Assembly: GCA_963692865.2 (NCBI GenBank) | Contig: OY843592.1 | Coordinates: forward strand, 1,952,001 to 2,016,000 | DNA length: 64,000 bases | Source of the DNA: a bacterium | GTDB lineage: Bacteria; UBA8248 | Direction of reading: 5' to 3' | Shown here: piece after piece, positions 4,505 to 19,991 of the stretch | Position numbering within the stretch: position 1 is the stretch's first letter | Layout of the letters: every line of letters begins with the position of its first letter | The notes under the pieces: generated by a model | The model's input: only the letters and a program-made list of their open reading frames with translations | Databases searched by the model: none | Told to the model about the DNA's origin: nothing | Program-made: the position numbers and the translations under genes

Positions 4505-5182
4505 ATGCCGAAGCCCGATATGGCGCCCGGCGAAATCCGGGTCGCACCCTCTTTGCTCTCGTGTTCTTTCGAGAGAATGGGCGAGGAGATAGCGGCGGTG
4601 CGCGAAGCCGGGGCGGACTGGCTGCATTTCGACGTGATGGACGGGCATTTCGTGCCGAACATATCCGTGGGGCCTCTGGGCGTCGAGGCGGCCAGGCGGG
4701 CCGCGCCGGGCATGGCGCTCGACGTGCACCTGATGATCGCGGATCCGGATCGCTACGTCGAGGCGTTCGCCGATGCGGGCGCGGACATCCTGACGGTGCA
4801 CGTGGAGGCGCCGACGCACGTCCACCGGACTCTCCAGAGCATACGCGCGCGCGGTTTGGGCGTCGGGCTGACGCTGAACCCCGGAACGCCGCTTTCGGCG
4901 GTGGAGGGCCTGCTCCCGGAGGTGGACATGGTCCTCGTCATGAGCGTCAATCCGGGCTTCGGGGGCCAGAAGTTCATACCGGCTTCGCTGGAGCGGATTC
5001 GCCGTCTGAGAGGGATGATCGAGGCGGGAGGACTGTCGGTTCTGATAGAGGTCGACGGCGGCGTCACGCCGCGCAACGCGGCGGAGATACGCGCGGCGGG
5101 CGCGGAAGTACTGGTGGCCGGTTCCGCCGTGTTCGGCGCGCAAGACTACGCCGAGGCCGTACGCGGCATCAGGGGCGGATGA
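4505..5182 (+). CDS. rpe: Ribulose-phosphate 3-epimerase
   Basis: HFDVMDGHFVPN, DVHLM, MSVNPGFGGQKF, EVDGG motifs. Confidence 0.98.
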   Translation: MPKPDMAPGEIRVAPSLLSCSFERMGEEIAAVREAGADWLHFDVMDGHFVPNISVGPLGVEAARRAAPGMALDVHLMIADPDRYVEAFADAGADILTVHVEAPTHVHRTLQSIRARGLGVGLTLNPGTPLSAVEGLLPEVDMVLVMSVNPGFGGQKFIPASLERIRRLRGMIEAGGLSVLIEVDGGVTPRNAAEIRAAGAEVLVAGSAVFGAQDYAEAVRGIRGG

Positions 5183-5192
5183 GGCTTGATTC

Positions 5193-5424
5193 GGGCTGTT
5201 GAAAAAGTCCTCATGAATGAGGGTTTGACGCATCCGATGAAAGAGCAAGAAACACTCCCCCCTTGAGGGTCGGGCTTCCCGAGGGGAAAGCCCAACGGTG
5301 AAGCCGAGCGTTTTTTGCGAAGGCTAAACCGGTGGGGGGAGATTTACTCTGTGGCATGTCCCCCCACCAACTCGCCTGCGGGCTTCGCCCTTGCCTCATC
5401 GTCGGCCTTCCCGAGGAGGAAAGA
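5193..5424. repeat. Left part of the host palindromic repeat interrupted by the IS, preceded by a TIR-like end
   Basis: GGGCTGTTGAAAAA at 5193-5206; ACTCCCCCCTTGAGGGTCGG... is similar to the reverse complement of 19617-19785. Confidence 0.85.
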
Positions 5425-5538
5425 TGGGGTAATCGGGTTGGTCTGCGAACTACCGCGTGTGGCGGATGTTCCTCTGCCTTATGATTCGAGGCGAGGCCGG
5501 GATGGTCCGGTCTCTACGCGCCCGCAGGAGGAGCAGTC

Positions 5539-6579
5539 ATGAACTACTTTGCAGGACTCGACGTGTCGTTGGAGTGGACGAGTGTGTGCGTGGTGGACGC
5601 GGAGGGCGGGATCGTCCGGGAGGCGAAGGTCGCGAGCGAACCCGCGGCCCTCGTGGCGTTCTTCACCGGACTGGCCTTCGGCGTAACGCGCATCTGCCTG
5701 GAGGCGGGGCCGCTGTCACAGTGGCTCCATGACGGTCTGGCCGAGGCCGGGTTCCCGGTGGTTTGCGCCGAGACGCGGCAACTGAAGGCGGTGCTCTCGG
5801 CGACGGTGAACAAGAGCGACCGCGACGACGCGCGCGGCATCGCCCAGTTGGTTCGCGCGAACCTGATTCGCCCGGTGCACGTGAAGACGGTGTCGAGCCA
5901 GGAAAAACGCATGCTCCTCGCCAACCGCAGGTTCATGCTGAAGCAGTTGTGCGACGCCGAGGCCCACATCCGGGGCACGCTGCGCAACTTCGGGCTGAAG
6001 ATGGGCAAGGTCACCCGTCGCGGTTTGGAGGCGCGTGTAGGGTGTCTGGTCGCGGAGCGCCCGGAGTTGGCGCGCCTGGTGGCGCCGATGCTGCGGGCTC
6101 GCTCTGCGCTGCTGGCGGAATACGTCCGGCTGCACAGGATGATGCTGGAGGCGGCGCGAGCCGATCCGGTCTGCCGGCGCCTGATGACGGTTCCCGGCGT
6201 GGGTCCGGTGACGGCGCTCACCTTCCGGGCGAGCGTCGACGTGCCATCGCGTTTTGCGCGCTCGCGCTCGGTGGGCGCGCACTTCGGGCTTGTGCCTCGC
6301 AAATGGCAATCCGGAGAGGTCGACCGCACGGGAAGCATCTCCAAATGCGGCGACGCGATGATGCGCGCGGCGCTCTACGAAGCCGCCAACGTCTTGCTCG
6401 GGCGCACGACGCGGTGGTCATGGCTGAAAGCCTGGGCGATGGGTGTGGCGAAGCGTCGCGGCAAGTCGCGCGCGAAGGTTGCGCTCGCCCGCCGGCTCGG
6501 CGTCATCATGCACCGCATGTGGATGGATGGCAGTGAGTTCCGCTGGAAGCGCGACGGCGCGGATGCTTCGGCTGCCTGA
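5539..6579 (+). CDS. IS110-family DEDD transposase/recombinase
   Basis: GLDVS, LEAG, KSDRDDA (DEDD tetrad); VPGVGPVTA; QSG serine motif; ISKCGD; KVALARRL; GGAGG RBS. Confidence 0.97.
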   Translation: MNYFAGLDVSLEWTSVCVVDAEGGIVREAKVASEPAALVAFFTGLAFGVTRICLEAGPLSQWLHDGLAEAGFPVVCAETRQLKAVLSATVNKSDRDDARGIAQLVRANLIRPVHVKTVSSQEKRMLLANRRFMLKQLCDAEAHIRGTLRNFGLKMGKVTRRGLEARVGCLVAERPELARLVAPMLRARSALLAEYVRLHRMMLEAARADPVCRRLMTVPGVGPVTALTFRASVDVPSRFARSRSVGAHFGLVPRKWQSGEVDRTGSISKCGDAMMRAALYEAANVLLGRTTRWSWLKAWAMGVAKRRGKSRAKVALARRLGVIMHRMWMDGSEFRWKRDGADASAA

Positions 6580-6639
6580 GGTCGAGACACTGAAGAAGGA
6601 GGACCACAGACAAACCCTGTAGCTTCCGCCTCGGCGGGG

Positions 6640-6816
6640 GATGCTCCCGTGGGGACGAGGGACGAAGTGAGTACGCTGTCGGCCTAGCCCCGCTGCGTCG
6701 GTGACGATGCGAGGGCGCAGGAAAGATTGTTCCACTTCGTTCTCCGATCCCATCCTGTTGACGGCCCCCGGCTCGGGAGTCGATCACGAAGAGAAGCGAG
6801 ACCCCCATGGAGCGTC
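6640..6816 (+). ncRNA. Predicted bridge RNA/seekRNA of the IS
   Basis: Closing stem 6640-6654/6803-6816; two internal-loop arms carrying matches to the target (6678-6682, 6719-6726) and to the donor junction (6749-6754, 6790-6796); boundaries approximate. Confidence 0.78.
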
Positions 6817-6893
6817 ATCTGCAGCCAAAGGCGGAACAGGTCTGACAGAACCAGGGGAGAGGAACTTGACTTGCCCTACCCGATTAGAGAAGA

Positions 6894-7464
6894 CCGACCC
6901 TCAAAGGGGGAGTGGTTCCATACTGCGTGTTAATCGGTATTGCTCGCGAGGAGGGAGTGAACCTCAAGACCATCGAGGTCGAACGCGGGCGGTGTAGGGG
7001 CCGCATATCATGCGGCCCGCCGCCGGAGGGGCGAAAAGGCCGGGCCGCATGATATGTCGGACATATATGTCTGGCCTACAAAACCGTATTCCCTGCATGA
7101 CGACCGTGGGGGCGCTTCACGAAGGCCCCCACGGGAACATCCCTTTGAGAGATCAAAGTGCCCGTCATTCCGGCGAAAGCCGGAATCCATTTTCGCCTTT
7201 GTCTTTGGCCCTTCGCTTAGACGTCCTCGTTCCCGGCCGGGGAAGATACGGACACCGCCATATGTATCCACCTTATCCGTTTCGGACTCGGGCGCGGCGC
7301 CCCCTCCCGCGAGTCGGAATCAAATGCAAAAACGAAGGTAAAAATCATAAAATGGATTCCGGCTTTCGCCGGAATGACGGTGGTTGTCCCGCATTGAGGG
7401 GGTTTTTCAACAACCCCGAGGAGGGAGCGTTCGCTGCCCTTGGCAGGGCTTTTTCAACAGCCCC
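6894..7464. repeat. Repeat mosaic: right part of the IS target repeat, GTAG doublet, inverted CGTC pair, two TIR-like ends
   Basis: 6894-7056 is nearly identical to the reverse complement of about 19450-19616; CGTCATTCCGGCGAAAGCCGGAATCCA at 7163-7189 and inverse at 7353-7379; TTTTTCAACARCCCC at 7403 and 7450. Confidence 0.9.
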
Positions 7465-19234: not shown

Positions 19235-19991
19235 GGGGTTGTTGAAAAAGCCCCGTCGACATCGCCTTTACCCCTCTGACAAGGGGGGACGGGGGGGTTG
19301 CAGTGACAACTCCGAGGGGGTGTTGAAAAAGTCCTGATTTCTAGATTTATCGTATATAACCGACCGACGAGAGAGGAAAACCACTCCCCCCTTGAGGGGG
19401 TAGTTGAAAAACCTATCCCTCTCGCATCAACCACGTTTTACCCGTAGGGGTCGCATATCATGCGACCCGGCCTTTTCGCCTCTCCGGCGGCGGGCCGCAT
19501 GATATGCGGCCCCTACACCGCCCGTGTTCGACCTCGATGGTCTTGAAATTCACTCCCTCCTCGCGAGCAATACCGATTAACACGCAGTATGGAACCACTC
19601 CCCCCTTGAGGGTCGGTCTTTCCGCCTCGGGAAGACCGACGGCAAGACGAGGACGAAGCCCGAAGTCGCGCCGGTGGGGGGAGTTTTTTATTTTAGAATC
19701 GTTCCCCCCACCGAATCGGCCTTCGCACAAACCGCTCGGCCTCTTCGTCGGGCTTTCCCCTCGGGGAGCCCGACCCTCAAAGGGGCTGTTGAAAAACCCG
19801 GAGAGAGACAGTTTGTTTGTAGGGGCCGCATATCATGCGGCCCGCCTTGTGGAGGCGAAAATCAGGGCCGCATGATATGCGGCCCCTACAATGCCATCGC
19901 GTTTTGCGTAGCAGGACAGACACGGAGACCTGTCCCTACGGGATCATCACGTCGCCGACCGAGGGGATACATGGCCTTTTTCAACAATCCC
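19235..19991. repeat. Large repeat mosaic including the intact (empty) IS target repeat
   Basis: TIR-like ends near 19235, 19316, 19396, 19782 and inverse at 19977-19991; GTAG doublets 19444-19516 and 19819-19889; palindromic element 19597-19785. Confidence 0.9.

Follow-up and report, generated by a model that had tools for sequence, protein, structure and literature searches.

We propose, with a probability of roughly 0.88, that positions 5424-6892 on the forward strand of the bacterial DNA examined here (64,000 nucleotides of contig OY843592.1, assembly GCA_963692865.2, lineage UBA8248; hereafter the window, whose coordinates are used throughout) hold an active IS1111-type element of the IS110 family, and that an RNA from its 3' non-coding region (6636-6820, + strand) works as a seekRNA or bridge RNA, that is, as a guide for the element's own recombinase. 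Direct observations on four matters carry this proposal: the protein family, the limits and copy number of the element, a fold preserved by compensatory changes, and guide segments that covary with both the insertion targets and the element's own (donor) ends.

The insertion sequence is 1,469 bp long, and a DNA search found six copies in the window's own genome that are 100% identical over this entire length. Comparison of these copies gives a left junction of ...GGAAAG/ATGGGG and a right junction of ...AGAGAAG/GCCGAC (a slash marks the junction here and below), and a 1,476-nt unitig from a DNA run has its termini at 5417 and 6892. Because AG is present at both junctions, it is assigned as the core, and the same dinucleotide stands at both junctions in all 28 homologous loci in which both ends could be placed. 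The GA core put forward in an earlier annotation made from the letters of the window only (the sequence-only reading) was not borne out; the element starts with ATGGGG (5424), one base to the right of GATGGG. At its left end (5424-5438, + strand), the terminal extension ATGGGG (5424-5429) is followed by the subterminal inverted repeat TAATCGGGT (5430-5438). The right end (6866-6892, + strand) contains TTGACT (6866-6871), the inverted repeat ACCCGATTA (6878-6886) and the terminal GAGAAG (6887-6892), the last two bases of which are the core AG (6891-6892). These two inverted repeats are 9 bp long, each lies 6 nt from its own end, and both sides change together across homologues.

Between these ends lies a transposase/recombinase gene of the DEDD/Ser type (5539-6579, + strand, 346 aa). 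Its product matches the Pfam families PF01548 (DEDD_Tnp_IS110, E 7.3e-13) and PF02371 (Transposase_20, E 3.2e-21) and scores 237 bits against a cut-off of 140 for NCBIfam NF033542, 'IS110 family RNA-guided transposase', so the proposal that this is an IS110-family RNA-guided recombinase holds up well. Its nearest relatives of solved structure in the PDB are the transposases of ISCro4 (E 1.8e-14) and IS621 (PDB 8wt6, E 3e-14). Predicted catalytic residues D8, E55, D94 and D97 were placed by motif and by the ISCro4 alignment, and a candidate catalytic S258 lies within GLVPRKWQSG (residues 250-259). IS1111 transposases have been described as proteins of 330-350 aa with a GL-P----S(T)G motif (PMC11187229). 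Thus, the GLVPRKWQSG string, the length of 346 aa, and the combination of a short left and a long right non-coding end place the element in the IS1111 group as defined there. Specifically, the group is characterized by subterminal inverted repeats (7-17 bp) that are separated from the termini by short extensions, by a longer non-coding region downstream of the transposase gene, and by sequence- and orientation-specific insertion. The inverted repeats described above agree with the first trait, the non-coding lengths of 115 nt upstream (5424-5538) and 313 nt downstream (6580-6892) with the second, and the six copies with the third. By every defining feature that can be tested, the element is a member of the IS1111 group.

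The guide RNA gene (long seekRNA or bridge RNA) occupies 6636-6820 on the + strand, as delimited by its full match to a covariance model, R1. It is closed by a stem in which GATGCTCCCGTGGGG (6640-6654) pairs with CCCCATGGAGCGTC (6803-6816). Inside this stem, the target-binding arm 1 (6656-6746, 91 nt) consists of a basal stem (6656-6671/6732-6746) that includes the strings ACGAAGTG (6662-6669) and CACTTCGT (6733-6740), then a 2-bp helix (6674-6675/6728-6729), an internal loop of 11+11 nt (6676-6686 and 6717-6727) and an inner hairpin (6687-6716). Further 3', the single strands of a multiloop (6747-6758 and 6787-6802) carry the donor-binding segments, with a hairpin (6759-6786) between them; all of these features are on the + strand. 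The minimum-free-energy fold of 6640-6816 (-79.5 kcal/mol, z = -2.67) is equalled by 1 of 200 shuffles and contains the closing stem and the arm-1 stem. It thereby reproduces the two stems of the sequence-only reading, all eight strings of which, from 6640-6654 through 6790-6796, were located correctly. The second arm in that reading needs revision: its donor strings are real, but they have no basal stem of their own and flank the hairpin 6759-6786 in the multiloop, an arrangement that fits a remark on donor-binding bases in the multiloop of many IS1111 orthologues (PMC11208160).

Relatives of the transposase were found at 52 loci, from 97% down to ~42% identity, in a scan of one genome per species. 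The closest loci come from metagenome-assembled genomes labelled Nitrospinota, and most others carry the label Alphaproteobacteria. R1 was built from the fold and an alignment (A1) of eight close RNAs. At E <= 1e-3 it has matches in 43 loci, and in every case the match is on the same strand as the transposase gene and immediately 3' of it; antisense matches have E values of 0.016 or worse. When aligned to R1, 90.4% of cells are paired, compared with 34-47% when the partners are slid by 1-3 columns. Compensatory change on both sides is seen for 45 of the 56 pairs, and 0 of 500 shuffles attain these values, although this alignment was fitted to R1 and hence favours its structure; among these helices, the closing stem is compensated in 13 of 14 pairs and the donor-side hairpin in 9 of 11. 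Three helices, namely the closing stem, the basal stem of arm 1 and the donor hairpin, also emerged when 12 diverse members were aligned and folded without the model (MAFFT and RNAalifold), and 12 of their 21 pairs show compensation. Many of the pairs are G-U, so the fold is strand-specific. The covariance modelling of homologous 3' regions that the sequence-only reading had suggested thus reveals a conserved fold. The genome contains six RNA genes and six transposase genes that are always paired, with no solo RNA copies. Judging from published relatives, the RNA would be transcribed, probably with the transposase mRNA, and would bind the protein.

Four short segments of this RNA resemble the DNA at the junctions. 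In the arm-1 internal loop, the right-target guide GTCGGCCT (6678-6685, + strand) is complementary to the top strand at AG/GCCGAC, which comprises the core and the right target. The sequence-only reading had picked out GTCGG (6678-6682) within it, a real match that proves to be part of this longer, 8-nt one. The left-target guide AGGAAAG (6719-6725, + strand) equals the top-strand left target AGGAA plus the core AG, and because it is identical to the top strand, it would pair with the bottom strand. Here the same reading rightly saw the match to the left target and core but drew the string one base too long: AGGAAAGA (6719-6726) runs through five target bases and the core AG into base 1 of the left end, and AT (6726-6727), directly after the guide proper, equals the first two bases of the left end. 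In the multiloop, the right-donor guide CCCATC (6749-6754, + strand) is complementary to G/ATGGG, which is the second core base followed by the left end. This complementarity had been noted before, with GATGGG mistaken as belonging wholly to the element although it includes a core base. The left-donor guide AGAGAAG (6790-6796, + strand) is identical to the right end AGAGA plus the core AG, just as had been claimed. Three of the four guides span both core bases and the right-donor guide spans one, and this difference resolves the register that had earlier appeared to be off by one base. The top-strand complement (6678-6685) precedes the top-strand identity (6719-6725) in all aligned homologues, and the donor strings follow the same complement-first order (6749-6754/6790-6796), in agreement with the earlier claim for both arms.

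It is fair to ask whether such short matches mean anything. The region could instead be a structured 3' untranslated region, a terminator or protein-binding DNA with no guide role, and the four matches could be coincidences of chance or low sequence complexity. Indeed, when the non-coding region was subjected to dinucleotide shuffling (n=3000), the longest guide matches of 8, 7, 6 and 7 nt were reached by 163, 1353, 785 and 380 shuffles, respectively; the left target, to which the second value applies, is purine-rich. Each match in the window sequence is therefore within chance; the sequence-only reading had itself cautioned that the matches are short. Since the single-sequence matches are individually unremarkable, the decisive support has to come from homologues. 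We nevertheless give the coincidental account almost no credence: all four matches occur jointly in 0 of the 3000 shuffles (their sum is reached in 55), the scan that served for promoters found no terminator-like site at 6640-6816 on the + strand, the variable columns of the RNA concentrate in the two loop strands, and the comparisons of own with other flanks, presented next, contradict it on both sides with flat controls.

For these comparisons, element ends were placed by the terminal GAGAAG motif together with the 9-nt inverted repeat, which replaced a search for the best inverted repeat that had picked unrelated repeats in about one third of the loci. Both ends could be located for 28 loci, and for another five the right end alone; the left ends of L023 and L024 were corrected by flank inspection, and spurious ends of L062 and L038 were dropped. 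Loci sharing a guide pair were collapsed to the first listed for the permutation test, in which L025 is represented by L022. Across 25 distinct guide pairs, the match between the right guide (read as the reverse complement of the 5' loop strand) and the right flank averages 7.12 nt for an element's own flank but 3.57 nt for those of other elements; for the left guide (the 3' loop strand) and the left flank, the averages are 5.52 nt and 3.43 nt (21 pairs). For each loop strand, 0 of 20,000 permutations reached the observed match, whereas wrong-strand and wrong-side controls stayed flat at 3.0-3.4 nt. Counted by locus, a right match of >=6 nt is present in 25 of 33 loci compared with 5.8% of non-own pairs, and a left match of >=5 nt in 20 of 28 loci compared with 10.9%. 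The guide-insertion-site covariation that had been named as a second check is thus evident on both sides.

The same relationship can be read in individual loci. In a set of eight RNAs from loci with transposases at 79-97% identity to the window's, variable columns make up 10 of 11 in the 5' loop strand and 6 of 6 at 6718-6723, but only 2 of 12 and 4 of 16 in the donor strands. For example, the 3' loop of L024 reads ATGAGAG beside a left flank of ...gatgagag, and the reverse complement of its 5' loop, GAGCCGACAG, faces a right flank of ag/agccgacag. The corresponding strings in L027 are CGAAAG with ...cacgaaag and AGGCTGGAT with ag/gctggat; in L028/29, they are TCAAAAAG with ...ttcaaaaag and GGGGGGCC with ggggggg(c/t)cc; and in L047, the reverse complement of the 5' loop is AGACCGGTTA and the right flank ag/accggtta. 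Loci with transposases in this identity range have at least five target specificities. These comparisons indicate that each loop segment pairs with a different strand of the target, that the two overlap at the core, and that both vary in step with the target; the natural variants imply that changes in the guides redirect insertion. Reprogrammability of the element would be expected by analogy with published relatives.

One could also suppose that the matches act as DNA, the loop-coding sequence being an internal copy of the junction, a pseudo-site or a remnant of insertion and not a guide in RNA. An observation of this kind comes from L045 (2535-2700 of that locus), where the element is truncated after ...GGTCGTG of the RNA gene, exactly behind the left-target-guide string, and is joined to CTTCCAGAG, which is what its subgroup has as right target (as in L042 and L043). 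In this copy, the DNA that encodes the guide seems to have stood in for the left junction when a deletion resembling excision took place, and so can perhaps act as a pseudo-junction. L045 is, however, a single and defective copy. Furthermore, the helices carry strand-specific G-U pairs and compensatory changes as in RNA, and the guides lie in the loop of a conserved fold in the order and strand sense of published seekRNAs. We therefore regard a DNA-level role as very improbable, though by a hair less so than pure coincidence.

The donor segments give a weaker signal than the target guides. Donor strings are nearly constant because the element ends are nearly constant, and the tests, with only nine distinct end pairs, are correspondingly low in power. 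The right-donor guide matches its own ends over 5.67 nt compared with 4.06 nt (6 of 20,000 permutations), and the left-donor guide over 7.0 nt compared with 6.15 nt (254 of 20,000). Where ends do differ, the RNA for the most part differs with them. L039 has a left end of ATCCCG with an RNA complement of GATCC, and a right end of ACAGAAG with the same string in its RNA; L049 has ATGAGG with TGAGG, and AAAGAAG with AAAGAAG. On the left side only, ATGAAG in L047/52 is accompanied by GATGA, ATGCGG in L055 by GATGCG, a left end starting CATGCG in L054 by the complement GCATG-, and one starting CATCGG in L053 by GCATTGGT. The core itself is AC in L057, and its left-target and left-donor guides both carry AC. 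Seven loci, including L053, L055, L057 and L045, were compared by eye. Together, these data suggest, less strongly than for the target, that the second pair of segments matches the joined donor ends and hence that the RNA is bispecific.

A rival account holds that only arm 1 (6656-6746) guides, as a short target seekRNA, while the protein recognizes the ends through the subterminal inverted repeats and the donor strings serve structure or processing. In its favour, the short seekRNA of ISEc11, which has target matches only, was reported to support transposition by itself, and what the long form does was left open in that study (PMC11187229). The near-invariance of the donor strings and the modest left-donor result are also compatible with it, as are the donor segments of L027 (left end ACGGGG) and L048/L056 (RNA GAGATAAG), which do not follow their ends. 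Against it stand the right-donor guide, which follows its own left end in L039, L047/52, L049, L054, L053 and L055, and the left-donor guide, which follows right-end or core changes in L039, L049 and L057. In addition, Durrant et al. place donor-binding bases in the multiloop for many IS1111 orthologues (PMC11208160). We judge guidance by arm 1 only to be unlikely.

Several points weigh against the bispecific guide RNA that we favour. Beyond the chance level of each match in the window, the model-fitted alignment, the only moderately significant left-donor test and the non-following donor segments of L027 and L048/L056, all given above, 10 of the 43 loci fall outside the flank tests, with ends that could not be placed (L034, L037, L038, L050, L051, L061, L062, L063, L064 and L068). 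The flanks of two close homologues, L025 and L026, mismatch their own guides, and L025 counts as a miss in the all-loci tally. The left flank of L036, ...aatcgagag, matches the left-target guide of L026 (TCGAGAG), and the pattern in L025, L026 and L036 may reflect guidance in trans by sibling variants or a change of guide after insertion. In the window copy, the first base of the right target forms a C-A mismatch, being A where the guide expects G; three sibling copies have G at this position. In two subgroups, L023/24 and L059/L033/L048/L056, the right-target guide is displaced by 1-3 nt with respect to the core. A scan of 5000-7300 with Rfam 15 (E <= 1) returned no family at the RNA. Finally, contigs of two metatranscriptome runs span only parts of the transposase gene (90-97% likeness) and pieces of the flanking repeat. 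Nothing was found in 6440-6895 in these runs, which cover 6-8% of sampled words and, consisting of contigs only, are silent on transcription either way.

If the RNA is indeed a bispecific guide, the reaction might proceed as follows. The segment GUCGGCCU (6678-6685) would pair with the top strand at AG-GCCGAC, and AGGAAAG (6719-6725) with the bottom strand at AGGAA-AG. Between them, the two target guides would define an insertion point that lies within a hairpin close to one end of a repeat resembling a miniature inverted-repeat transposable element (MITE). In the multiloop, CCCAUC (6749-6754) would pair with G-ATGGG where the two ends meet in the excised circle (...AGAGA-AG-ATGGG...), and AGAGAAG (6790-6796), which equals AGAGA-AG of the right end, would pair with the joined ends likewise. 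Strand exchange by the DEDD/Ser recombinase would then take place at the AG core. Both this chemistry and the circular intermediate are extrapolated from published relatives.

A further detail of the left-target guide invites speculation. The two bases that follow the core in this guide equal the first two bases of the left end (AT) in nearly all members; in L054, they are CA, and the left end starts with CA, whereas in L053 and L057 they agree with the left end in one of two positions. Comparable 'handshake' extensions were looked for on the right-target, right-donor and left-donor guides in the homologue alignments and were not seen there. A handshake-like extension solely on the bottom-strand guide, together with the reversed guide order, raises the thought that IS1111-type elements run the IS621 reaction mirrored, with the bottom strand first, and that guide-coding DNA is a cuttable pseudo-junction. 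We consider this idea doubtful; it relies on one clean co-varying case (L054). If true, the cuttable pseudo-junction suggested by L045 would impose a self-targeting cost on guide evolution. In the available text of the literature retrieved for IS1111 and handshake, handshake guides are treated for IS621 only.

The target proved to be a repeat family, as had been proposed. It sits in a MITE-like repeat of ~195 nt whose inverted ends are CCCCCCTTGAGGGTCGG ... CCGACCCTCAAGGGGGG and which carries one hairpin module close to either end; in the genome, its terminal 17-mer is matched 121 times at <=2 mismatches. In the window, the left 171 nt of the repeat (5253-5423, + strand) start with the terminal inverted repeat CCCCCCTTGAGGGTCGG and end with ...CCCGAGGAGGAA and the core AG (5422-5423), and the right target with the last 23 nt of the repeat (6893-6915, + strand) reads ACCGACCCTCAAAGGGGGAGTGG. 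Counted from one end of the repeat, the insertion point lies 23 nt in, at the loop-stem junction of the hairpin GTCGGCCT-loop-AGGCCGAC. Four of the six copies share one insertion position and one orientation within the repeat, and one has the repeat on its left side only; the repeat is thus on the left of five of the six. The remaining copy occupies a non-repeat site that resembles the target, GGGAAG/GTCGAT. An unoccupied perfect 13-mer target has no exact match in the genome, where there are near-matches only.

Some other observations concern this repeat and its surroundings. The module at the other end of the repeat, GGGAAAG/CCCGAC, is a near-target that none of the six copies uses. The left repeat parts are identical for 151-152 nt at C1:11682, at the window copy and at C1:1781644, and other repeats differ in the spacer; either identical copies of the repeat were hit or the repeat and the insertion sequence moved together. 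A copy of the target repeat that is unoccupied and carries the variant site CGGAAAG/ACCGAC lies at ~19590-19635 of the window, on the minus strand (C1:1971590-1971635); its right flank, agtggttccatactg, is identical to that of the window copy of the element. Outside the window, the repeat copy at G000:C1:3606994-3607035 (L009/L010) reads ...GTCGGCCTTCCCGATTAGAGAAG/GCCGACCC, its normal loop sequence being replaced by the last 14 bases of the element's right end. This looks like a solo-right-end scar, as expected from a deletion between the CCCGA strings of the left target and the right end. A second, palindromic repeat, ...CATATCATGCGGCC...GGCCGCATGATATGTCGGACATATATGTC..., is found at 7004-7058 and to the left of the C1:11682 copy, and recurs beside other copies of the MITE-like repeat. 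The only Rfam match in 5000-7300, a weak SAM-VI-like one at 7004-7058 (22 bits against a gathering score of 57.5, E 0.35), is probably due to this repeat and not to a riboswitch. At 7127-7141 on the minus strand, ~235 nt past the element, a separate hairpin-like stretch contains GATGTTCCCGTGGGG, one base off the 5' strand of the RNA closing stem.

Two observations bear on the ends of the element. In the downstream stretches of homologues, a TTGAC located 27-28 nt ahead of the right terminus is conserved throughout the family, and TTGACT at 6866-6871 is a possible -35 element of a circle-junction promoter. In a circle junction, TTGAC would stand 17 nt upstream of GAAG+AT, a weak -10 element (A at position 2, T at position 6). 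The two could form a junction promoter of the kind reported for IS1111 elements, with the -10 element lost in the integrated copy; a promoter scan found no sigma-70-like promoter in the linear element. In L050 (2780-2800 of that locus), the right end is without the AGAAG of the terminal GAGAAG, reading ..CCCCGGTTAG/ACCGGTTAAC compared with ..GGTTAGAGAAG/ACCGGTTAAC in L047 and L052, and this locus is probably a decayed copy.

How much of this is new? The sequence-only reading announced a new natural recombinase/RNA pair, and what stands is a new member of an established class. That IS1111-type elements are guided by RNA encoded in their 3' non-coding region, with the same guide order, was published in 2024 (PMC11187229, PMC11208160), and the NCBIfam family name already labels such proteins RNA-guided. 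Judged from published descriptions, as opposed to sequences or folds, the element closely resembles ISEc11, ISPa11 and ISKpn4 (Siddiquee et al. 2024, PMC11187229). It shares with them the long non-coding region downstream of the transposase gene, the subterminal inverted repeats, a transposase of ~340 aa with the GL-P----S/TG motif, and two short target-strand matches that overlap at the insertion point in the same order, the top-strand match lying 5' of the bottom-strand match. ISPa11 likewise targets a repeat of the repetitive extragenic palindromic (REP) type. Published seekRNAs measure 82-96 nt in the short and 145-172 nt in the long form (PMC11187229; PMC13604230); arm 1 (91 nt) falls within the short range, and the stem-closed structure (177-185 nt) lies slightly above the long one. 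Target, core (AG) and host are different. Matches to the donor ends can be seen in the present element, while PMC11187229 left open what the long RNA does.

With IS621, the element shares the DEDD and Ser recombinase type (PDB 8wt6) and a single RNA with target- and donor-binding units (PMC11208160, PMC11208158). The contrasts with IS621 are drawn from the same papers, and for guide order also from PMC11187229. The RNA lies in the 3' (right) end here and in the 5' end of IS621, each unit has its guides in the opposite order, a multiloop and not a closed internal loop accommodates the donor strands, the core is AG where CT is reported for IS621, and the sole handshake-like extension is on the bottom-strand (left-target) guide and not on top-strand guides. 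The subterminal inverted repeats are also long by comparison with IS621. Insertion into hairpin-forming intergenic repeats and an element-linked small RNA are features shared with ISPpu9 (PMC12288879) and ISPpu10 (bioRxiv 10.64898/2026.03.19.712850) of Pseudomonas putida. A full-text search for literature that combines Nitrospinota with IS110 found none. Durrant et al. predicted bridge RNAs in 93.0% of IS1111 elements (PMC11208160), and relatives of the present element may already be within their supplementary tables. Thus, the element itself seems to be undescribed, but its kind is known.

Although the finding leaves the understanding of the mechanism unchanged, we see value in it on other grounds. 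Transposases that are 79-97% identical, with at least five guide pairs that each match their own site, form a natural series that amounts to a ready-made reprogramming experiment, and the covariance model and alignment can be used to find and read such RNAs. For this clade, the analysis clarifies the identity of the core (AG), the strand that each set of loop bases reads and the placement of the donor-binding bases in a multiloop. It also adds a well-resolved natural RNA-guided recombinase of the IS1111 type from a poorly studied lineage.

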